From positions 1-58,905 of the forward strand of contig CAYVMP010000002.1 in the NCBI GenBank assembly GCA_964452635.1: a stretch of 58,905 nucleotides of DNA. Reading direction: 5' to 3'. Both the position numbers and the translations under genes were made by a program. The DNA comes from an uncultured Candidatus Saccharibacteria bacterium. GTDB taxonomy: Bacteria > Patescibacteriota > Minisyncoccia > Phycocordibacterales > DATDWN01. A model generated the notes under the pieces. It did no database searches. It saw only the letters and a program-made list of their open reading frames with translations, and was not told where the DNA came from. The stretch's first letter is position 1. The number at the start of each line of letters is the position of its first letter. Positions 4,740 to 54,740 of the stretch are shown here, one piece after another.

Positions 4740-4866
4740 ATAATTTCTTAAATAAATTACGGATAATGACGAACTAAATCGACGGCTACTACGCTATACA
4801 TTATATAGTAAGGGTTTTTTAGTGCAACATATTGAAAATATATCAAAAATGTTGTGTAGATCTGGT

Positions 4867-6396
4867 CTATCGTGCAAACTCAATGCTTCGTGATTCACGA
4901 ATCACATTCACTTTTATCTCTCCTGGGTATTTGAGTTCGTTTTCAATACGGATTGCTATGTCTCGTGCCATTTTATGTGCCTCAAGATCTGTGACTTCTG
5001 TTGGTGTTACGAATATTCTGATTTCACGGCCAGCTTGGAGAGCATATGCTTTCTCAACACCGGTAAATGATGTTGCGACTGCTTCCAAATCACCAAGACG
5101 TTTGAGATAGTTTTCAATACTATCACTTCGGGCACCCGGTCTGCTTCCGGAAATAGCATCAACTGCCTGAACAATCATTGATTCGAGTGTTTCGTACGGG
5201 TATTCCTCGTGATGTGCCTGCATCGCCTTAATGATTGCTTCGTCAGTTCCAAATTTCTGGAGGATTCTGCGTCCGATTTCTACATGTGATCCAGCAACTT
5301 CGTGGTCGAGCGCTTTGCCGATGTCGTGTACGAGTGCACCTGCTTTGGCAACTGCTACGTTTGCACCGATTTCTTCAGCAATCATTCCTGCAAGGTGGGT
5401 CATCTCGACTGAGTGTGCGAGTACATTCTGTCCATAGCTGGTTCGGAAATGTAGTCGTCCGAGAATAGAGATAACACGAGGATCCAGTCCGAGTACACCT
5501 GTCTCGTACACAGCTTCCTCGCCTTTTTGTTTTATAATTTTATTAATTTCCTCCTCAGATTTCTTTACAATCTCTTCGATTTTTGCAGGTTGAATGCGTC
5601 CATCGGCAATGAGTTTCTCTAGAGCGGTCTTTGCAACCTGACGTCGAACAGGATCAAATGACGATATAGTAATTGATCCCGGTGTGTCATCAACAATCAC
5701 CTCAACACCAGTCACACGTTCGAATGCTTTTATATTTCTACCTTCTTTTCCAATAATTTTGCCTTTAATATCATCATTCGGAATGCTTACGTGTGTCGTG
5801 AGCATGTCAGATGTAACTGAATTTGCGAGTCTTTGGATTGATGTTGCAAGAATGGATTTTGCTTTCTGCTCAAATCTTTCCTCGCCTCCTATTTCTAGTT
5901 TGTGAATGCGGGCAAGAATATCTTCCTCCGATTCCCGCTCAACTTTCTGTAGAATTTCTTTTCGAGCTTCTTCTTGTGTGAGTTGTCCAATCTTCTGCAA
6001 CTCTTCTTTTTTCTGACGTTCAAGTTTTTCTGTGTTTTCTCGAATAGCTTTTATTTCCTCGATTCTCTGTTTAATCTGTTCAACTTCTCTATCAATGTCT
6101 GTCTGTCGGTTATCGAGCAACTCTTCCTTTTTAATCAATCGATCTTCTGTTTTCTTTTGTTTTTCTTCTTTTTCTTTGATTTCTGCACGAGCTTCTCGCA
6201 GAATCTCTTCTGCTTTTTTCTCTGCTTCGTCTATGATTGTTTTGTGTTTCTGCTCAGCTTCAAGTTGCATCTCCTTCAACTCAAGCTCCATAGAGCCCTT
6301 TTTACCGAGTGAGATGATGAGACGCAAATAATAGCCGAGCCCAATGCTGACCACTGATGTTCCTGCAAGGAGGAACAGTACTAATTTTAATGTCAT
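4867..6396 (-). CDS. rny: Ribonuclease Y
   Basis: N-terminal TM, long coiled coil, KH motif GKIIGKEGRNIKAFE, HD domain HDIGKA. Confidence 0.93.
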   Translation of the reverse strand: MTLKLVLFLLAGTSVVSIGLGYYLRLIISLGKKGSMELELKEMQLEAEQKHKTIIDEAEKKAEEILREARAEIKEKEEKQKKTEDRLIKKEELLDNRQTDIDREVEQIKQRIEEIKAIRENTEKLERQKKEELQKIGQLTQEEARKEILQKVERESEEDILARIHKLEIGGEERFEQKAKSILATSIQRLANSVTSDMLTTHVSIPNDDIKGKIIGKEGRNIKAFERVTGVEVIVDDTPGSITISSFDPVRRQVAKTALEKLIADGRIQPAKIEEIVKKSEEEINKIIKQKGEEAVYETGVLGLDPRVISILGRLHFRTSYGQNVLAHSVEMTHLAGMIAEEIGANVAVAKAGALVHDIGKALDHEVAGSHVEIGRRILQKFGTDEAIIKAMQAHHEEYPYETLESMIVQAVDAISGSRPGARSDSIENYLKRLGDLEAVATSFTGVEKAYALQAGREIRIFVTPTEVTDLEAHKMARDIAIRIENELKYPGEIKVNVIRESRSIEFAR

Positions 6397-6594
6397 GGAA
6401 TGTAATATTCCTCTTCAGGCAATAATAAACCTATGGAAGGCGAGATGTTCGTATATTCTGTCTAATCTGTATAGTCATAAGTGTTATGAATTGTTGGAAT
6501 TCTCTGATACCAATGGGGTTGTCTGTACTGAATGAAAAGAAACGGAATTTAAAATGGTAATACCACAACTATAATAGATATAGAGCATAAAGTC

Positions 6595-7215: not shown

Positions 7216-7243
7216 GGTGTGGGTTGGTTATGTGTAAAATATC

Positions 7244-7266
7244 AAATCTCTTTCTCGACGAGATTT
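7244..7266 (-). promoter_or_regulatory. Small 5'-leader hairpin with loop GTCGAGAAA, about 29 nt upstream of the clpP ATG (apparently unoccupied target motif of the foldback repeats)
   Basis: Minus strand reads AAAATCTC-GTCGAGAAA-GAGATTT. The same CTC-GTCGAG...CGAGAAA-GAG halves bracket the repeats at 28471-28660, 50024-50145 and, degenerately, 54597-54720. Confidence 0.5.
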
Positions 7267-7337
7267 TGTTACTAAAAACGTTACGTAAATATACCAGAAA
7301 TTAAAAATAAGACAAAATCGACAAAATGTAGTACAGT

Positions 7338-8079: not shown

Positions 8080-9162
8080 CTACTTATTTTGACTTTCGAG
8101 GAATGAAAGTACGAGCTCGTTTGTCATGAATGTCTCAACATACATTCGTACTCGGAAACGCTCCGCATCTTTGTAGTGTTCGATAATGTGCTCCATCTCC
8201 TTTTTCACATCCTCCTCTGCTGGTTCGAGTTTTTCAGCGCGAGCAATTTCATTAAGTACTACCTGAGACTTTGCTCGTTTGAGTGCAGTTTCCTTCCATT
8301 CGTTTTTCAAATCCTCCTCTGTTTTTTTGATGTGTTTTAAATAATCTTCATATGATACTCCAGAACGAGTAAGATCGTCTTTGAATTGTGCAAGCATTTT
8401 TTCCATTTCTCCGTCAACGATGATTTGCGGTAGTTCGATTGTTGATTTCTCGATAATCTCTTCGAGAAGATGTGTACGATGTTTGTCACGATCCTTAAGA
8501 GTTTTCTCAGACGCAATATTTTCTTTGATTTTCTCTTTGAGTTCGACCACAGTTTTGAATCCTCCTATTTTTTGAGCAAACTCATCGGTGACTTCTGGCA
8601 AATCTGCGTCAGTAATCTCTGGGTGGTCATGGGTATGTTCGTCCGATGAGTGTTTTGCATGTATTTCCTGATGCGCAATGTTTTTTCGGATATTGAGGAG
8701 CACCTCATCTATTTCGGCATCTGTGACATCTGGTGTTTTTGTAGAAACTTTCTTATTTTCAGTCTGTGCTATTTTTTTGTATTCAGCAAGTGTGATGAGT
8801 GGTGCAAGGTATGTTTTGATTTTGAATGATAGTTCATTCCCCGGTGCCATCTTTGTGATACTGATTTCAGGTCTACCTATGGCATCAATAGAGTGTTCAT
8901 CGAGTATGTTTGGGTACTCCTCCGAGAGCGCCATCTCAGCTGTTTCTTCAAGAACGCTCATTTCTCCAACTTTCTGTACGATGAGTGCATCAGGAGCATT
9001 TCCCTTACGAAATCCCGCAATCTCAATGTTTTCTTTGATTTTCGCTACTGCCTTTGAACGAAGTTCATTCATTCTCTCTGCGGTAATAGAACCAACAATC
9101 TCCATCTCTCTTTGAGGGAGTGAGTTGAGCACAATATCTGTATAGTTTTTTTTGTTTGGCAT
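8080..9162 (-). CDS. tig: Trigger factor lacking the PPIase domain (360 aa)
   Basis: The ribosome-binding N domain (AGFRKGNAP signature) joins the C-terminal arm domain through a short His-rich linker. Confidence 0.8.
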   Translation of the reverse strand: MPNKKNYTDIVLNSLPQREMEIVGSITAERMNELRSKAVAKIKENIEIAGFRKGNAPDALIVQKVGEMSVLEETAEMALSEEYPNILDEHSIDAIGRPEISITKMAPGNELSFKIKTYLAPLITLAEYKKIAQTENKKVSTKTPDVTDAEIDEVLLNIRKNIAHQEIHAKHSSDEHTHDHPEITDADLPEVTDEFAQKIGGFKTVVELKEKIKENIASEKTLKDRDKHRTHLLEEIIEKSTIELPQIIVDGEMEKMLAQFKDDLTRSGVSYEDYLKHIKKTEEDLKNEWKETALKRAKSQVVLNEIARAEKLEPAEEDVKKEMEHIIEHYKDAERFRVRMYVETFMTNELVLSFLESQNK

Positions 9163-9525: not shown

Positions 9526-10293
9526 TTAGTTAGTAGTATTAGTTGTTGTTGCTGTCTTGCCATTCCATCCTTTGAGGTTACCGAGTGCTTTCTCAAGTGA
9601 CTTACGAGCCTCTTCTATGTGTTTCTGTGTCTCGTTGGCTACTTTTCGTAACTCAATCATTGCTCCTAGTGTTGTTGATGCTGTTGTAGAGTTTGCTTCG
9701 ATACTTGCTGTTGTACTTGCAAGAGCAGTCATTTTAGTGAGACTGACACGTGCTTCACTAAGGTGTACCTTCGCCTCTGCGTCGAATTTTTCACTGACTG
9801 TTGTGTCTACTCCAGCGTTTTTTACTTTAGTAATTCGTGATTCAAGTCGTACAGCAATAGCACTTAATCGAGAGATGGTCGCATCAAATCTCTCAATCAT
9901 AGGATCGAAGCGGTTTCGAAGTTTGATACCCATGATTTCACGACGACCTTCTTCTCGTCTGTCTTTGATATCCTCACGCATATCTTTGCGAGCTTCTGTT
10001 GTACTTGCACGAAGATTTCGCATATCCTGCATTGTTGTACTTGCATTACCTCGCATGTCTTTTCGTATATCTTTGATATCCTCACGAGTTTCTGTTCGGA
10101 TATTTTTGACATCTACTCGAATACCCATACGAGCCTTTATTGCTTCGAGTACACCCTTTTTAGGTGCTGGTGTTCCTACAGATGCACTGCTGTTTACTTC
10201 TACATTTGTGCCTTCTTCTGCGTACACAGCTCCAGCACAGACGAGTATTGCCACTGCACAGATTGGAATTAGTTTTTTATAGTATGGTGTCAT
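9526..10293 (-). CDS. Secreted repeat/coiled-coil protein (255 aa)
   Basis: Signal-peptide-like N terminus (IPICAVAILVCAGAVYA). Reiterated DIKDIRKDMR / RKDMREDIKDRRE motifs. The antisense 241-aa ORF is Ser/Arg-rich and looks like an artefact. Confidence 0.65.
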   Translation of the reverse strand: MTPYYKKLIPICAVAILVCAGAVYAEEGTNVEVNSSASVGTPAPKKGVLEAIKARMGIRVDVKNIRTETREDIKDIRKDMRGNASTTMQDMRNLRASTTEARKDMREDIKDRREEGRREIMGIKLRNRFDPMIERFDATISRLSAIAVRLESRITKVKNAGVDTTVSEKFDAEAKVHLSEARVSLTKMTALASTTASIEANSTTASTTLGAMIELRKVANETQKHIEEARKSLEKALGNLKGWNGKTATTTNTTN

Positions 10294-10434: not shown

Positions 10435-10606
10435 AAAATCGATTAACTAAGTTTATTTTGGAACATCGCGCAGTTGTTTAGAAAACAACTGCGGGCGAGT
10501 GATGGGAACACGAGATCCGCATATTGTTTTCTTGAACGACGAGCGTGAGGAAAATTTTCACCAGAAAATTATTCTGTTTCCAAAATAAACTTAGTTAATC
10601 GATTTT
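10435..10606 (+). repeat. Foldback repeat copy A (long core, about 30-bp unique arms)
   Basis: Arms AAAATCGATTAACTAAGTTTATTTTGGAAC / GTTTCCAAAATAAACTTAGTTAATCGATTTT. Core 10456-10586 is 129/131 identical to 28501-28631. Confidence 0.85.
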
Positions 10607-10616
10607 AACGAACATT

Positions 10617-11138
10617 CTAGCTTTTCTTTGTTTTATACAGCTCGATTGCCTTGTGAAATGCTTCAACTGCCTCCTTTTTATCACCAATGCCTTCAATCGT
10701 TACTTCTTTTTTCTGAATCTGTTTGTATGTTTTGAAATAGTGCTCAATTTCCTTGAGTGTGTGTTTGTTTATGTCTCCTATATCCTGCACATCTGCCCAT
10801 CGTGGATCTGTTACTGGTACTGCGATGATTTTTGCATCACTTTCTCCTGAGTCAATCATGTGCATGATTGCGACAGGTCGTACACGTACGAGAATACCGG
10901 GGAATAGTGGGTACGTGGTGAGGACGACGACATCGAGCGCATCTCCATCATCCCAGAGTGTCTGGGGAACGAATCCGTAGTCGAATGGACAATCCTGTGA
11001 TGTATGAAATACACGATCGAGGGCTATAATCCCTGTTTCTTTATCAATTTCGTACTTATTTTTCGATCCCTTATTGATCTCGATGATAGTTGTAATCTCA
11101 TTCTCTGTTCCGGGGGCAATGTCGTGTAATAGGTTCAT
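10617..11138 (-). CDS. ppa: Inorganic pyrophosphatase (family I)
   Basis: 173 aa. YEIDKETG, DGDALDVVVL, DSGESDAKIIAV signatures. Confidence 0.93.
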   Translation of the reverse strand: MNLLHDIAPGTENEITTIIEINKGSKNKYEIDKETGIIALDRVFHTSQDCPFDYGFVPQTLWDDGDALDVVVLTTYPLFPGILVRVRPVAIMHMIDSGESDAKIIAVPVTDPRWADVQDIGDINKHTLKEIEHYFKTYKQIQKKEVTIEGIGDKKEAVEAFHKAIELYKTKKS

Positions 11139-11202
11139 AGTGTGGCTCTAATTAAGGATAATTATAGGCTCATAATACCAGAGGATAGGGGAGTAAATCT
11201 AC

Positions 11203-11231
11203 TTGACAATAAACTTAAAAGCGTGTATAAT
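11203..11231 (+). promoter_or_regulatory. Near-consensus sigma70-type promoter
   Basis: TTGACA (11203-11208), 17-nt spacer, TATAAT (11226-11231), about 200 nt upstream of the ATG at 11436. Confidence 0.6.
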
Positions 11232-28438: not shown

Positions 28439-28470
28439 ATTTTTTTGGTTAATCACTAAAATTTTGGTAT

Positions 28471-28660
28471 CGGCTATAATCTCGTCGAGCACATATCTCA
28501 TTTTGGAACATTGCGCAGTTGTTTAGAAAACAACTGCGGGCGAGTGATGGGAACACGAGATCCGCATATTGTTTTCTTGAACGACGAGCGTGAGGAAAAT
28601 TTTCACCAGAAAATTATTCCGTTTCCAAAATGGGATATGTCGAGAAAGAGATTATAGCCG
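28471..28660 (+). repeat. Foldback repeat copy B (long core) nested in the GTCGAGAAA-loop hairpin
   Basis: Outer stem CGGCTATAATCTC/GAGATTATAGCCG. TCGAG at 28485-28489 and 28640-28644. Arms ACATATCTCATTTTGGAAC / GTTTCCAAAATGGGATATGT with one T-G pair. Confidence 0.85.
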
Positions 28661-28688
28661 AACATCCAATTACTGTATACTATACCAC

Positions 28689-31891: not shown

Positions 31892-32011
31892 TCAGATCTG
31901 CACAACATATCTTTTTTAGAACATGTCGGAACTCGTGAAGAAGTGAGATTGAGGAAAAATCGTAGCAACGATTTATTCCGTTTCTAAAAAAGATATGTTG
32001 TGCGGATCTGA
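31892..32011 (+). repeat. Foldback repeat copy D (short core)
   Basis: Arms TCAGATCTGCACAACATATCTTTTTTAGAAC / GTTTCTAAAAAAGATATGTTGTGCGGATCTGA with one T-G pair. The core aligns with copy C. Confidence 0.8.
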
Positions 32012-41667: not shown

Positions 41668-41681
41668 GAAAGAAAGTAAAC

Positions 41682-41710
41682 AAAATACCGCTCAACAGAG
41701 CGGTATTTTT
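41682..41710 (+). terminator. Intrinsic terminator after rplB
   Basis: AAAATACCGCTC-AACA-GAGCGGTATTTTT. Confidence 0.75.
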
Positions 41711-41736
41711 GTACATGCAATTCATATGGGAAGCTA

Positions 41737-41765
41737 TTGACTTTTACATTGAAAAGTAGTATAAT
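41737..41765 (+). promoter_or_regulatory. Near-consensus promoter inside the S10 operon
   Basis: TTGACT (41737-41742), 17-nt spacer, TATAAT (41760-41765). Confidence 0.6.
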
Positions 41766-41771
41766 ATATGA

Positions 41772-42005
41772 AGAATTATGGAACAGTTATTTTTTTCTTG
41801 GGCAGATGCACTCGTGCGTCTGCCGTACGACTTGTTCGGGGTCACGATGACTCCGGAGCAGGTCGTAATGGGGATGTGTGTTGTCGTTGGGGGGAGCTTC
41901 TTGCGAAGTTCGTTCCAGCGACTGTAGTTTTTCGTGGTCAGTAGGAGATATGAGCCCTACTGACCACCCAACAAGGCGTCGTGAGGATTTCCTCTGACGC
42001 TTTTT
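41772..42005 (+). ncRNA. Candidate highly structured sRNA, or structured mRNA of a 49-aa hydrophobic peptide
   Basis: GC-rich segment with consecutive hairpins at 41801-41824, 41826-41867 (18 bp), 41883-41922 and 41934-41967 (12 bp perfect), plus terminator 41976-42005. Several T-G pairs fit only plus-strand RNA. ORF 41778-41927 reads MEQLFFSWADALVRLPYDLFGVTMTPEQVVMGMCVVVGGSFLRSSFQRL. Confidence 0.4.
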
Positions 42006-42053
42006 CGTTTACAAAAAGTGTATCTGTGATATTGTGAAATCGGAGGTGTGGCT

Positions 42054-42299: not shown

Positions 42300-42310
42300 G
42301 GTTGGGTCGG

Positions 42311-42349
42311 TCGCTCAAGGGGAAATACTCCCTTGGGCGATTTGTTTTT
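42311..42349 (+). terminator. Intrinsic terminator
   Basis: TCGCTCAAGGGG-AAATAC-TCCCTTGGGCGA followed by TTTGTTTTT. Confidence 0.7.
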
Positions 42350-42433
42350 GTATAAAGGGGTGGTAGTAAAGGTTAACTCTGACTCAGAAAGTACCCATTT
42401 TCATCGATTCTGCTTCTATTAGAAAATACAGTA

Positions 42434-42462
42434 TTGACATTCGACACTGATTTGTATAGTAT
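42434..42462 (+). promoter_or_regulatory. Putative rpsS promoter
   Basis: TTGACA, 17-nt spacer, TAGTAT. Confidence 0.5.
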
Positions 42463-42555
42463 GTGCCTATCGTAAATTGTGCTTGAGTCGGATGTAAAAC
42501 CGCTCTACACAGAGTGGTTTTGCTTTGTTACAGAAAACATTTTCAAAATAATTAC

Positions 42556-46320: not shown

Positions 46321-46797
46321 ATGAGTAGTTTTGAATGTTGGGTGACTGCGGTCATCCTGATCGTTATCTGTGCTTTTTTGATTTGGTTTCTGGTTGTGAG
46401 GAAGATTAATGAGGAAAACCAGAGGCTGAAAGAAGAAAATGAAAGTCTCAGACATAAAACTACCACAGAGTCATTTTTGTGGAATATTTTTTCTGGGTTA
46501 AACCTATTCTTGGACTATATTGACAGGGAAATACCCGTGTCTGTATATTGTACACTTTCTCTTTCGCATGATTCTATAGAGGTATACTGGCAACCTCGCT
46601 TGTCAAAATCTAAAAATCCAGCATCAAAGAATACTATTGTATTGGTGTCTGTGATTAATGATGGGAGTGTTGTACTATCCAGGGGTGAGGTGCAAGAAAA
46701 TTTTTTTGCAATGTCTAATGCTTGGGATATACAACATAGAGTTATGGGAATTATAGATGAATTTTTGAAAGACTATAAAGTATCATGTAGCAGTTAG
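46321..46797 (+). CDS. N-terminally anchored orphan protein, cassette 1 (158 aa)
   Basis: GGAGG 8 nt upstream of the ATG at 46321. TM segment WVTAVILIVICAFLIWFLVV. Distant similarity to the cassette 2 protein. Confidence 0.6.
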   Translation: MSSFECWVTAVILIVICAFLIWFLVVRKINEENQRLKEENESLRHKTTTESFLWNIFSGLNLFLDYIDREIPVSVYCTLSLSHDSIEVYWQPRLSKSKNPASKNTIVLVSVINDGSVVLSRGEVQENFFAMSNAWDIQHRVMGIIDEFLKDYKVSCSS

Positions 46798-46805
46798 GAT
46801 GACGA

Positions 46806-46838
46806 CCAGTGTGCCCCCGAGGGGAGCCCACTGGTTTT
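46806..46838 (+). terminator. Repeated terminator hairpin, copy 1
   Basis: ACCAGTGTGCCCCCGAGGGGAGCCCACTGGTTTT is identical to 47299-47332. Confidence 0.7.
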
Positions 46839-46893
46839 ATTTTATATTGACTCGTATTTTGAATAATGGTAGTAATAGTTCGGAGGTGAGTAT

Positions 46894-47292
46894 ATGTTTT
46901 TTCTCGTGGTTGTCGGTATGTTTACTTTTGTGTTGGGTGTCGTTGTATTGGTACAGGGTATTCATCACAGAAGAAAATTTGTTGTTTTCAACGAGAGACT
47001 AGGTCTCCTATCAACAAGAGATTTAGGTGAACTTTACAAAAGCATTAAAAATTTTGTTGATTCAAACAATCTAACTTCTCAATTGGCAGTCTCGTGTGGT
47101 TTTGAAAGTAACTCAATTGATGTTTGTACTGCTGATTCGGGTAGCAGATTATTTTCTGTGATAATAAATTACTCTAACGGTCATCATATTAAAATTGATG
47201 ATGGTCAGGTAACCGCGTGGGAGATATTCGGAGTAATGGAAGTTTTAGAGATGTGTAAAAGAAAGATTGTTAGTCATCGTGTGCAGGTCTAG
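46894..47292 (+). CDS. N-terminally anchored orphan protein, cassette 2 (132 aa)
   Basis: GGAGG 7 nt upstream. TM segment FFLVVVGMFTFVLGVVVLV. The upstream 45 nt are paralogous to cassette 1. Confidence 0.6.
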   Translation: MFFLVVVGMFTFVLGVVVLVQGIHHRRKFVVFNERLGLLSTRDLGELYKSIKNFVDSNNLTSQLAVSCGFESNSIDVCTADSGSRLFSVIINYSNGHHIKIDDGQVTAWEIFGVMEVLEMCKRKIVSHRVQV

Positions 47293-47299
47293 CAGATAA

Positions 47300-47332
47300 C
47301 CAGTGTGCCCCCGAGGGGAGCCCACTGGTTTT
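47300..47332 (+). terminator. Repeated terminator hairpin, copy 2
   Basis: Same sequence as 46806-46838. Confidence 0.7.
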
Positions 47333-47345
47333 GTTTATTCATTTA

Positions 47346-50023: not shown

Positions 50024-50145
50024 CATTCTCGTCGAGCACATACTATTTTGGAACATCCCGGAAGGCGTGAAGACCTGAGGGCGAGGAAAATTTTCAGCAG
50101 AAAATTATTCCGTTTCCAAAATGGTATGTGTCGAGAAAGAGAATG
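50024..50145 (+). repeat. Foldback repeat copy C (short core) nested in the GTCGAGAAA-loop hairpin, between rplO and secY
   Basis: Outer stem CATTCTC/GAGAATG. TCGAG at 50032-50036 and 50131-50135. Arms CACATACTATTTTGGAAC / GTTTCCAAAATGGTATGTG with one T-G pair. Confidence 0.85.
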
Positions 50146-50164
50146 GAAAACAGCGATACATATC

Positions 50165-51436
50165 ATGACAAATTTTTTTAATAAACTATCACTCATATTT
50201 CAAGACAAAATTCTCCGCGGACGAGTGTTCTTTACACTTGGTGCACTCATCGTGTTTCGACTTCTTGCAACAATCCCAATCCCAGGTATTGATACAGGCA
50301 GACTTGCACAGTTTCTCTCAGGTAATGAATTTTTTGGATTGCTCAACCTATTCTCTGGAGGAGGTCTCTCTCAGCTATCCATTGTGATGCTCGGTGTTGG
50401 TCCATACATTACATCATCGATTATCATGCAACTCATGACAATCATTTCTCCACGACTCAAGGAGATGTATCAGGAAGAAGGGAACATCGGTCGTCAGAGA
50501 TTTGCTCAATACGGAAGAATACTCGCTGTTCCTATGGCGCTTGTTCAGTCATTTAGTTTTATCAAACTTCTCCAGAGTCAGCAGATTCTCGGTCAGATTT
50601 CACCAACACTTCTTGGTATTAACTTACTTATTATTACTGCGGGATCACTTCTTCTTATGTGGATTGGTGAGTTGATTTCTGAGTATGGTATTGGAAACGG
50701 TGTATCACTTATCATTTTCTCAGGTATCGTTGCAGCTATCCCAACTGAGGTTGGACAGCTTTTGTTTGCCTTTGATAAAGCACAACTTCCTCTCTACCTC
50801 GCATTCGTGGTTGTTGCAGCACTTGTGATCATCGGTGTAGTCATCATCACTGAGGCAGAACGTCCGATTCCTGTTACATATGCAAAACAGGTTCGTGGTA
50901 CTCGTGTGTACGGAGGAACATCAACATATCTTCCACTCCGTATTAACCAAGCAGGTGTGATTCCAATCATTTTTGCACTCTCTATTCTCGTATTCCCACA
51001 GCTCATCTTGCGTTACTTGCAGAACAATAGCATTGTGTTTATTAAAACAGCATCAACAACCATCCTAGCACTGCTCAACAACAGTTGGTTCTACGCTATT
51101 ATGTACTTCCTATTGGTGTTTATCATCACATACTTCTATACAGCAGTGACGTTTGACCCAGATGGTATTTCTAAAAATTTGCAGAAAAATGGTGCGTTCA
51201 TACCCGGAGTACGACCAGGAGTTTCTACATCAGAACACATTGCTCGTATTCTCACTCGTCTCACACTCGTCGGAGCACTTTTCCTCGGTGTTATCGCGGT
51301 GTTGCCCCTCATTATCAAGGGCCTCACAGGTATCACAGCAGTGTCAGTCGGTGGAACAGCTCTCCTCATTGTAGTGTCAGTAGTCATTGACCTCATCAAG
51401 AAAATCGACGCACAAGTATCTATTCGGGAGTATTAG
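50165..51436 (+). CDS. secY: Preprotein translocase subunit SecY
   Basis: Start at the ATG at 50165 (MTNFFNKLSLIF). Ten-TM SecY pattern. The upstream ORF extension is repeat read-through. Confidence 0.95.
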   Translation: MTNFFNKLSLIFQDKILRGRVFFTLGALIVFRLLATIPIPGIDTGRLAQFLSGNEFFGLLNLFSGGGLSQLSIVMLGVGPYITSSIIMQLMTIISPRLKEMYQEEGNIGRQRFAQYGRILAVPMALVQSFSFIKLLQSQQILGQISPTLLGINLLIITAGSLLLMWIGELISEYGIGNGVSLIIFSGIVAAIPTEVGQLLFAFDKAQLPLYLAFVVVAALVIIGVVIITEAERPIPVTYAKQVRGTRVYGGTSTYLPLRINQAGVIPIIFALSILVFPQLILRYLQNNSIVFIKTASTTILALLNNSWFYAIMYFLLVFIITYFYTAVTFDPDGISKNLQKNGAFIPGVRPGVSTSEHIARILTRLTLVGALFLGVIAVLPLIIKGLTGITAVSVGGTALLIVVSVVIDLIKKIDAQVSIREY

Positions 51437-51451
51437 GAAGTAGGGAGAAAT

Positions 51452-51655
51452 AAAAAATCTTTGAACCAATATCTTTCTGGCACATCGCACATAAGGGTAC
51501 ACTTACATCTGATGTACTCATCAGATGAGAATTTAAAAAAATTTTCGAGTGGTGTGGATTGGAGAGGCCCCGGAGCCGACGGGCGAGGACCTGAGGGAAT
51601 TTCGCACCAGCGAAAACCCGTACTCTCCAAGACATACCACGAGAAAATTTTTTTT
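51452..51655 (+). repeat. Composite/degenerate foldback repeat copy E between secY and adk
   Basis: Left end CCAATATCTTTCTGGCACATCGC matches copy F. 3' module CCTGAGGGAATTTCGC-ACCA-GCGAAAACCC matches the family hairpin. Outer AAAAAAT/ATTTTTT pairing. Confidence 0.6.
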
Positions 51656-51676
51656 AAATTTGCTATCATATTACCT

Positions 51677-52276
51677 ATGAATCCTCAAACATTTGTTTTC
51701 ATTGGGCGGTCAGGATGTGGGAAGGGAACACAAGCAGATTTACTCATTAAGTATCTCGAAGGAAAGGATAAAGAAAACCAGATATTTTATCTCGAAACTG
51801 GTCAGCGGTTTCGTGATTTTATTGCTGGGTCTGGATATTCAAACGAACTCGCACGCACTATTCAAAACAGTGGTGGGCTCCAACCATCATTCCTTGCTGT
51901 GTGGATTTGGTCATCAATCATGATTGAGAAGGTATTGCCAAATCAACATATGGTGATTGATGGTACACCACGTAAACTTGGAGAGGCAATTATTTTCACA
52001 GAAGCAATGAAGTTTTATAACAGAAAGCCATTCATTGTATACATGGATGTGTCGCGTTCGTGGTCAGAGAATAGGTTGTCAGAGCGTCATCGGTCTGATG
52101 ATGTGCTCGCTGTCGTGAAGAAACGCCTCGATTGGTTTGATACCGATGTGATCCCAGCAATCGAATATTTCAGAACTCATCCCGATGTAAGTTTCCTAGA
52201 TATAAACGGTGAGCGGGGTATCGAGGAAATTCACGCTGATATCGTTTCTCGTATTTCGGGGTATATTACTCCATAA
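51677..52276 (+). CDS. adk: Adenylate kinase-like nucleoside monophosphate kinase
   Basis: Start at the ATG at 51677. P-loop GRSGCGKGTQ. Conserved position after secY. Confidence 0.85.
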   Translation: MNPQTFVFIGRSGCGKGTQADLLIKYLEGKDKENQIFYLETGQRFRDFIAGSGYSNELARTIQNSGGLQPSFLAVWIWSSIMIEKVLPNQHMVIDGTPRKLGEAIIFTEAMKFYNRKPFIVYMDVSRSWSENRLSERHRSDDVLAVVKKRLDWFDTDVIPAIEYFRTHPDVSFLDINGERGIEEIHADIVSRISGYITP

Positions 52277-54182: not shown

Positions 54183-54596
54183 ATGACACGTCCACATTTA
54201 TTTAAACACGCATTCATCACACTCATACTCGTTGGTGTTTTGAATTTCATCGCAACTCGACTGTATTTGTACTGGACTACTCAATACTTTGATAGTCTCG
54301 TACACTTTACTGCGGGTATATCAGTTGGATTTGCGACACTTTGGATTGTGTCACGGAGTCAGCCATCATGGACGACCATCGAGATATTCCGAGTGGCATT
54401 TTTCGGTACACTAGCCATCGGTCTTCTGTGGGAGGCATACGAACTCATGTTTGGCATCACATCAATCCTCGACGGTGTTCACTATGTCACCGATACACTA
54501 TTTGATTTGGTGATGGATGTGCTTGGGTCAGTTGTGGCGGCATTCTATTCGATGGGACTTGCAACCACGACACCTTCAACAGAACAAATTAAATAG
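54183..54596 (+). CDS. Four-TM membrane protein, hypothetical (137 aa)
   Basis: Four hydrophobic helices. No motif recognised. Confidence 0.6.
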   Translation: MTRPHLFKHAFITLILVGVLNFIATRLYLYWTTQYFDSLVHFTAGISVGFATLWIVSRSQPSWTTIEIFRVAFFGTLAIGLLWEAYELMFGITSILDGVHYVTDTLFDLVMDVLGSVVAAFYSMGLATTTPSTEQIK

Positions 54597-54720
54597 AAAA
54601 CTCGTCGAGCCAATACATTTCTGGCACATCGCGGAACGAGTGAATACACGTGAGCGTGAAGTAAGTGTTCACTTCGTTCCCTTATCCGGTGACAGAAAGG
54701 TATTGGAGAGAAAGAGTTTT
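54597..54720 (+). repeat. Foldback repeat copy F (variant ends TTTCTGGCAC/GTGACAGAAA)
   Basis: Outer stem AAAACTC/GAGTTTT with GTCGAG...GAGAGAAA halves. Arms CCAATACATTTCTGGCAC / GTGACAGAAAGGTATTGG. Inner hairpin GGAACGAGTGAA...TTCACTTCGTTCC. Confidence 0.7.
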
Positions 54721-54740
54721 CTATTTAATTCAATTATATC

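Follow-up and report, generated by a model that had tools for sequence, protein, structure and literature searches.

A family of long intergenic hairpins in some Parcubacteria with a centre more conserved than its ends

We analysed a 58,905-nucleotide stretch of DNA (hereafter the window), positions 1 to 58,905 of contig CAYVMP010000002.1 in assembly GCA_964452635.1 of an uncultured Candidatus Saccharibacteria bacterium, in which all of the genes identified are housekeeping genes. Scattered between them are six intact copies, A to F, of a foldback repeat of 120 to 190 nucleotides, each better folded than its shuffles (z from -6.3 to -12.5), together with three remnants. The density is about one copy per 8 to 10 kb, and the six intact copies are all on the plus strand. 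They are members of a so far undescribed family of intergenic long hairpins that occurs in some ultra-small Parcubacteria (Paceibacteria/Zambryskibacteria-like) and is more conserved at its centre than at its ends. The intact copies were first traced through sites sharing TTTTGGAACAT and a table of repeats in the window. A covariance model run with its filters off returned exactly A to F on the plus strand, and its other matches were plain hairpins only.

Copy A (10435-10606) lies between ppa and a gene at 9526-10293, both on the minus strand, and is antisense to both; copy B (28470-28661) lies between sodA on the minus strand and a metallo-beta-lactamase-fold gene on the plus strand. A repeat search of the window aligned the core of A (10455-10586) with that of B (28500-28631) at 130 of 132 positions (98%). 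The two differences are C at 10467 versus T at 28512 and T at 10575 versus C at 28620; at both, the family consensus has the base of A, as does the copy at locus L081, described below. The sequences ATTTTGGAAC...GTTTCCAAAAT are common to the two copies, and outward of these the similarity is at chance level for a gapped alignment: in the 24 nucleotides beyond TTTTGGAAC...GTTTCCAAAA, only 12 of 24 match on each side with gaps allowed. Each pair of arms closes a helix of about 30 bp within its own copy. That of A (10435-10463 with 10578-10606) has no mismatch, with 14 of 14 positions complementary in the scored stretch, and the arms of B (28470-28508 and 28623-28661) are 82% complementary across 39 nucleotides. 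The minimum free energy is -79.2 kcal/mol for A, folded as one hairpin (z = -12.3), and -92.0 kcal/mol for B (z = -12.5), and none of 200 shuffles was as stable in either case.

An earlier note on this DNA, made from the letters alone, had singled out this pair for its near-identical cores, unrelated self-pairing arms, 30-bp closing helices and the plus-strand position of A among minus-strand genes. These observations hold, and the pattern recurs: the copies at L098 and L099 have cores 97% identical and arms matching at 7 of 14 positions, and elsewhere too, cores 97 to 100% identical are coupled with differing arms. That the arms are unrelated is true of A against B, but the arms of B are not idiosyncratic. 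They are the canonical arms of the family, matching those of D at 21 of 24 (5') and 20 of 24 (3') positions, and their motif occurs in most copies of other genomes; the arms of A are locus-specific. The note had named two findings that would overturn its view. One, that most copies would have the same arms, as in an ordinary miniature inverted-repeat transposable element (MITE), is partly the case, given the canonical arms of B. The other, an assembly artefact, does not apply: A and B have unique flanks at each site, and in L081, an independent JGI assembly, the same ppa site is occupied by a member of the family. With z below -12 and relatives in many independent assemblies in addition, artefact or chance is almost certainly not the explanation.

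We first derived the common architecture by hand and then seeded a covariance model (R1) on copies C and D. All copies share one layout, with a three-way junction at the centre and a P2/P2a arm containing G-A loops. P1 is a long stem with inner part TTTTGGAA/TTCCAAAA; its innermost 9 to 10 bp (ATTTTGGAA/TTCCAAAAT) form the conserved termini of the shared unit. From P1, the junction strand CAU leads to P2 (3 bp, for example CCC/GGG, GUC/GAU or CGC/GCG) and an internal loop of GGA or GCA opposite GA; beyond this loop come the P2a hairpin, of variable length, the junction strand YGA, P3 (11 bp with a bulged A and a loop of AGCA or ACCA) and the strand GU, after which P1 closes. In copy A, P1 at 10435-10463/10578-10606 is followed by CAU at 10464-10466, P2 at 10467-10469/10543-10545, GCA at 10470-10472, an expanded P2a at 10473-10540, GA at 10541-10542, UGA at 10546-10548, P3 at 10549-10575 (loop ACCA at 10560-10563) and GU at 10576-10577. 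Copies A and B depart from C and D only by this expanded P2a of about 68 nucleotides. The basal stem of the long form, YUUAGAAAAYAA/UURUUUUCYUGARC, is common to A, B, L084, L083 and L118, with differing tips, and also occurs in copies from other genera; the long form is thus an old subfamily, not private to A and B.

The core of the unit, 74 to 130 nucleotides long, is closed by TTTTGGAA/TTCCAAAA and then by 20 to 40 further base pairs. The only recurrent P1 sequence is that of the inner 9 to 10 bp and of the mid-stem CTCGTCGAG/GAGAAAGAG; the outermost 11 to 30 bp, outside the modelled stem, are specific to each copy. Mid-way along P1, a conserved asymmetric purine-rich loop (5' CUC-GUCGAG, 3' NGAG-AAA-GAG) is carried by most copies elsewhere, by B, D and F, and in reduced form by E. 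The arms of A, C and L081 lack it and are perfect or nearly so. Copies A and B score 73.1 bits each, at full length, with R1, and 84.3 bits (over 10446-10595) and 82.4 bits, respectively, with a second model, R2. The arms of B have the canonical sequence AATCTC-GTCGAG...(T)CGAG-AAA-GAGATT; outside this lies an extension specific to the copy, TCGGCTAT/ATAGCCGA.

Of the other four intact copies, copy C (31892-32011), a short form between rpsG and fusA with a 30-bp P1 that includes one G-U pair, was a seed of R1 and scores 99.1 bits with R2. Copy D (50024-50145), also short and with canonical arms, lies between rplO and secY; its inner unit CACATAC...GTATGTG is bracketed by TCGAG direct repeats. 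Copy E (51532-51657), between secY and adk, is divergent and GC-richer, with a tandem G-A loop (CGAG/CGAG) in P1, and scores 26 bits with R1 and 37.8 bits with R2. Copy F (54597-54722), divergent but with a canonical outer arm, overlaps the stop codon of a DUF2238-like open reading frame (ORF; 54183-54596) and lies upstream of an RNase J-like gene. The outer arm of F was considered as a possible copy of a conserved coding end, but the DUF2238-like protein shows no conservation in its C-terminal tail. The elements also inflate ORF calls, as in the tail of ORF 54183-54596 and at secY and adk, where the mechanically called ORFs start at TTG inside D and inside E or an adjoining fragment (the added stretches being 50048-50164 and 51461-51679); the true starts are likely the ATG codons at 50165 for secY and 51680 for adk.

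The family extends well beyond the window. Our search set comprised 80 SecY loci, additional syntenic contigs and 21 metagenome loci that a degenerate P3/P1 pattern had retrieved (loci are labelled L). The window organism is itself a bacterium of the Parcubacteria group, and its nearest SecY relatives are Zambryskibacteria-like, at 77-83% identity. Together, the window and these public Parcubacteria contigs yielded 36 copies, 35 found with R2 plus one at L118. In the model-fitted alignment of 29 sequences, 95.1% of cells are standard pairs, against 40-59% with the partners slid, and both sides have changed in 34 of 35 pairs. An ungapped MAFFT alignment of 11 short-form copies, not fitted to the structure, gave 94.5% paired against 41-55% slid, with 21 of 35 pairs changed on both sides, and RNAalifold independently predicts P1, P2 and P3. 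The family therefore exists and its structure covaries. Covariance modelling had been proposed as a check in the earlier note, which treated A and B as an isolated pair explained neither by an ordinary MITE nor by a slowly drifting structured RNA; that argument is at least overstated, A and B being two of six or more copies of a family with strong covariation in every helix.

Neither databases nor literature account for the family. Rfam 15 gave no family match to the elements, either in the window (at gathering and at E-value <=10) or in 11 other loci (at gathering). In the window only a tRNA reached gathering; the one match to an element, to mir-5014, was of a generic long-hairpin kind, and its 37 bits fell short of the threshold of 101. 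ARAGORN found tRNA-Gly at 1965-2036 alone and nothing at the elements, which rejects a tRNA- or tmRNA-like identity. Self-cleaving ribozymes (hammerhead, twister, pistol, hatchet, hairpin and HDV-like) had no match at E-value <=10. Judged by eye, the G-A motifs fit neither a hammerhead or hairpin ribozyme nor a K-turn in their junction strands and loop sizes: the strands CAU, YGA and GU do not suit a hammerhead core, and the P2 loop is 3x2 (GGA/GA), not the 3-nucleotide bulge of a K-turn. The viral contigs scanned held no match. We found no published description of such interspersed repeats or structured RNA families in Candidate Phyla Radiation genomes; the TIGR-Tas arrays of the same bacteria are tandem arrays of unrelated layout.

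Covariation this strong, in all four helices, raises the possibility that the element is a functional structured RNA: a cis-acting element for mRNA processing or stability (as a substrate of RNase III, RNase Y or RNase J, or as the target of a protein recognising the G-A motifs) or a small RNA gene. P1 would then be free to covary, so that the arms of paralogues differ, and the identity of the A and B cores would stem from recent duplication or conversion. Several further features fit. The unpaired purine-rich nucleotides (CAU, GSA, GA, YGA, the A(G/C)CA loop and GU) are conserved across genera, and on the sense strand G-U outnumbers A-C by 32 to 13, which indicates strand-specific folding. 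Copies C, D, E and F are sense-oriented inside ribosomal-protein and secY-adk gene runs, and elements have long been retained at two sites, one of them adk|map, which is occupied in both L001 and L093 with 72% flank identity and compensated divergence. The genomic context speaks otherwise. About two-thirds of the copies beyond the window are antisense to both flanking genes, and immediately upstream of A and of B the element strand shows no convincing promoter-like site, so that the compensatory changes expected of a structured RNA come without a consistent transcriptional context. Most related genomes lack the family, as do the syntenic sites of close relatives; there are also truncated copies and a stump, and the perfect 30-bp arms of A, C and L081 look mechanical rather than selected. 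We regard a functional RNA as a possible but tentative explanation.

Comparison of modules between copies shows that they have been shuffled. A and B match at 12 of 24 positions in each arm, at 79 of 80 in the P2 region and at 24 of 24 in P3. B and D match at 21 of 24 and 20 of 24 in the arms and at 23 of 24 in P3, but their P2 regions are unrelated; D and L081 match at 15 of 24 and 12 of 24 in the arms, at 23 of 26 in the P2 region and at 17 of 24 in P3. The sharp edge between a 98% identical interior and arms at chance level cannot be the product of a single recent duplication of a whole element followed by drift; it implies either that the interior was transferred between existing copies or that the core alone moved into another palindrome. 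Since B and D share arms and P3 but not the P2 region, module exchange is favoured. Copies A and B would thus have obtained their common long-form interior by recent copy-to-copy transfer, most likely through ectopic gene conversion bounded by the conserved inner P1, with inner P1 and P3 serving as homology. The arms would have separate histories, canonical in B and locus-specific, probably re-templated, in A. Gene conversion of the core, one of the routes proposed in the earlier note, fits this mosaic.

A second proposed route, insertion into a pre-existing palindrome, has a direct example at the ppa site. In relatives whose Ppa is 74-76% identical, the corresponding spacer is 110-116 nucleotides long and holds an ordinary terminator and no element; this is the case in L107/L109, L110/L111 and L112, the terminator being AAAAAATACCTGC-AAACA-GCAGGTATTTTT in L110 and AAAAACACCC-TGTA-GGGTGTTTTTT in L112. 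In the sister strain L081, whose Ppa is 95% identical, the site holds a short-form copy in the same antisense orientation, and the outer P1 of this copy, GAAAATACCCCAG...CTGGGGTATTTTC, is the stem of the ppa terminator, so that the copy is nested within a host terminator that L110 and L112 keep without it. In the window the site is occupied by the long-form A, whose arms are quite unlike the perfect arms of L081 although the flanks align; the heptamer AAATCGA lies inside the palindrome of A but is flank in L081. The Ppa of the window has no identical protein on record. A terminator stem with A and T tracts encloses the copies at L027, L052 and L059 as well as that of L081, and a terminator scan found none at A or B. 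Beside A, the hypothetical ORF at 9526-10293 (minus strand, no Pfam match) has internal 41-nucleotide repeats at 9950-9990, 10058-10098 and 10091-10131, and is shadowed by a long antisense ORF at 9557-10282.

Nesting of this kind could mean that only the 132-nucleotide core bounded by ATTTTGGAA/TTCCAAAAT is mobile and was inserted separately into two existing palindromes, the arms of A and B both being hairpins of the host or of older elements. The A/B identity indeed ends exactly at inner P1, every copy has its 11-30 bp copy-specific outer extension of P1, and the elements appear layered, from an outer stem through CTCGTCGAG...GAGAAAGAG, inner arms and core to the P2a expansion, with TCGAG repeats round the inner unit in D and B. 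However, the nested unit in L081 includes about 9 nucleotides of family-like inner arm (ACATAGGCA) beyond ATTTTGGAA, and so exceeds the core. Moreover, a loop-free, perfect, AT-rich palindrome of 20 bp is not a natural pre-existing hairpin, and the combination in D of the arms and P3 of B with another P2 region is better explained by module exchange. Core-only mobility is therefore unlikely in our judgement.

The ppa site also bears on whether arms are rebuilt in place, one arm being resynthesised from the other by intrastrand template switching or hairpin-primed repair after mutation or deletion, so that arms would diverge fast between copies and strains while complementarity stayed perfect. 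In C, a 5' arm similar to the canonical one faces a 3' arm that is not canonical but exactly complements its partner. The perfect or near-perfect arms of A, C and L081, which lack the canonical asymmetric loop, fit as well, as do the unlike arms of A and L081 within aligned flanks and the AAATCGA in the palindrome of A. These observations hint at re-templating, which the earlier note had suggested in the form of hairpin-primed copying and which we can only infer. Seven nucleotides of flank homology are thin, no intermediate states were seen among the copies, and independent insertion or replacement of the whole element at ppa explains the same data; as a general account of the family, arm rebuilding seems to us rather doubtful.

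All copies are intergenic, often 10-30 nucleotides from the end of a neighbouring gene; about 16 are opposed to both neighbours, whereas about 8 run in the direction of the genes. The window has positive GC skew throughout, and A to F all lie on that strand, but outside the window orientation has no consistent relation to skew, and a replication-strand bias was rejected. Among 75 SecY loci searched with R2, about 10 have a copy. The syntenic L113 (SecY 82% identical) has none in 17 kb, and its sodA|metallo-beta-lactamase and rplO|secY spacers measure 45 and 17 nucleotides where the window carries B and D. Sites occupied in the window are thus empty in relatives, at ppa and, as these short spacers show, at the positions of B and D; no sister-strain contigs were found for sites B to F, the closest SecY relative being 83% identical. 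Other repeats occupy some of the same spacers: L115 (SecY 81% identical) has another AT-rich foldback, TTTTCAATTTAAAATTTTCA..., in its rplO|secY and secY|adk spacers (5052-5155 and 6428-6582), which R2 does not match.

Most genomes have adk and map abutting or overlapping, as in L005 (GGATGGTAACAAT), where the adk stop lies inside the map start. The copies at this site in L001 and L093 (72% nucleotide identity) are bracketed by a direct (A)TGGTAA repeat, a target duplication of 6-7 bp that keeps both gene ends and marks an old insertion. The adk|map spacers of L006 (~11070-11153), L010 (~8106-8190) and L012 (~8681-8727) hold other short palindromic repeats unrelated to the family, for example ACGAATTAACGAAT....

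The three remnants in the window show that deletion derivatives exist. The first is a stump, AAAATCTCGTCGAGAAAGAGATTT (7240-7270, minus strand, between clpP and rsmE), in which canonical outer arms are joined directly, the inner element being gone at the TCGAG repeat; an exact CTCGTCGAGAAAGAG occurs in the window at its segment 7248-7262 alone and is missing from all of 103 loci. The stump may have arisen by deletion across TCGAG repeats, or it may be a target that holds no insertion. With the TCGAG repeats around the inner unit of B and D, it fits slippage deletion across a hairpin, and it also suggests an old nested insertion. The second (51446-51527, plus strand) is the truncated 5' half of a long-form copy that abuts E in the secY/adk spacer; its arm is 83% identical to that of F, and its P2a insert resembles that of L090 (8707-8837). 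The third is a coreless hairpin, CCAGATCTACACAACAT...ATATGTTGCAC (~4823-4866, minus strand), directly 3' of the RNase Y stop codon, with arms matching those of C at about 16 of 19 positions. The 16-mers of each arm match only the partner arm, other family members and two remnants, which rules out arms acting as guides for other sites.

Taking these observations together, we favour, with moderate confidence, a mobile foldback element that is non-autonomous and exchanges modules between its copies through gene conversion. It would have spread as DNA moved in trans by some enzyme that recognises the fold of the single strand, through its junction and asymmetric purine-rich loop, rather than conserved termini, and it would tend to land in, or become enclosed by, palindromes. 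The strand-specific folding and the conservation of the asymmetric loop support this reading. Copies transcribed with neighbouring genes would yield a long double-stranded RNA hairpin, whatever other role they have. The small, non-coding, multi-copy elements in AT-rich intergenic DNA resemble MITEs, but their terminal inverted repeats are not conserved between copies.

Several points weigh against this interpretation. A Pfam scan of 40 ORFs in the window found no transposase, integrase or reverse transcriptase, and no autonomous parent element was found in the 59 kb of the source genome searched. Target duplication is seen at one site only, and none is evident at the outer palindrome edge of other copies. 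Conserved unpaired purines and deep cross-genus covariation are traits of a functional RNA and not of a typical MITE, and the continued occupancy of the ppa and adk|map sites in diverged genomes could reflect selection for function. If A and B underwent gene conversion, it would rest on short homology, 12-13 nucleotides on the 5' side, and a donor copy with the arms of A may exist beyond the 59 kb examined.

Among known repeats, the ERIC/IRU elements of Enterobacteriaceae are similar in being imperfect palindromes (~127 bp), intergenic in either orientation and co-transcribed as hairpins, with size variants made by internal insertions at fixed points, copy numbers that vary greatly between lineages and no known transposase (PMC10969869 and general background). 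They have no sequence relation to the Parcubacteria family and belong to another phylum; their ends are conserved, unlike the Parcubacteria family with its conserved three-way-junction centre, copy-specific distal arms and one copy nested in a host terminator stem. The Correia elements (CREE) of Neisseria are likewise short, non-coding, high-copy foldbacks beside genes, with a transcript hairpin that is a substrate of RNase III, but end in conserved terminal inverted repeats of 26 bp and show duplication of TA (PMC10969869). The Parcubacteria family has neither conserved outer termini nor a regular duplication.

The bcr repeats of the Bacillus cereus group resemble the Parcubacteria family as modular, structured, interspersed repeats with conserved predicted RNA folds. 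BOX/SPRITE repeats of Streptococcus pneumoniae are also modular, structured and interspersed, with conserved predicted RNA folds (PMC3049150). In both BOX/SPRITE and bcr, some repeats are terminator-like and modules differ between copies, but the sequences are unrelated and there is no long closing helix with an asymmetric G-A-rich loop and a three-way junction. The intergenic REP/REPIN repeats also form hairpins and are presumed to move in trans through RAYT transposases that read folded single-stranded DNA. REPs differ in being 20-40 nucleotides long, with a GTAG motif and conserved arms, and no RAYT-like gene was seen in the window. The two A/B differences (C/T and T/C) are not confined to adenines, and the scanned ORFs include no reverse transcriptase, which rejects a template/variable repeat pair of a diversity-generating retroelement.

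In integron attC sites structure is better conserved than sequence: the spacer bases are unpaired, the terminal structure varies and folding is specific to one strand. The imperfect hairpins and conserved asymmetric unpaired spacer described here recall such single-strand recombination sites. Yet the elements have no R and L box consensus (RYYYAAC/GTTRRRY), are dispersed among core genes (secY, adk, fusA, ppa) rather than in cassette arrays, and no integrase was found among the ORFs scanned, which makes an integron-type system highly improbable. We rate the family as a structure-defined Parcubacteria foldback repeat in which the three-way-junction centre is conserved, whereas the arms vary and derive in part from the host. 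Its nearest kinds are ERIC, Correia, BOX/SPRITE, bcr and REPIN, which it resembles in where it lies, in copy number, in transcript hairpins and in internal size variation. A more speculative proposal, which we advance cautiously and think unlikely as it stands, is a structure-defined class of element in which a three-way-junction module is copied as single-stranded DNA or RNA into existing hairpin loops (terminators or older copies) by a fold-reading enzyme, each copy gaining new self-complementary arms and copies becoming nested; or else the family would be a widespread, undescribed functional RNA of Parcubacteria.

Contrary to what is usual in small mobile repeats, it is the centre of this family that is conserved and the ends that vary. 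Candidate Phyla Radiation genomes are among the most streamlined known, and copies occur even inside the ribosomal-protein and secY-adk gene runs; at about one copy per 8-10 kb of the window they are a sizeable load for such a genome, implying either active mobilising machinery or a useful function. The 36 aligned copies, two covariance models, occupied and empty orthologous sites and the terminator-nested copy form a resource with which to seek an enzyme or RNA-binding partner, and the effects of hairpin repeats on transcription and mRNA processing, in bacteria not yet grown alone.

Other features of the window are separate from the family. Two copies of a GC-rich hairpin, ACCAGTGTGCCCCCGAGGGGAGCCCACTGGTTTT, lie in the ribosomal-protein run at 46751-46842 and 47245-47336 and represent a different repeat. 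Perfect or near-perfect TTGACA-17-TATAAT promoter-like sites with similar surroundings occur at 11203-11231 and 41737-41770, and the ribosomal-protein run is preceded by ORF-free gaps at 41668-42047 (380 nucleotides) and 42300-42513 (214 nucleotides).

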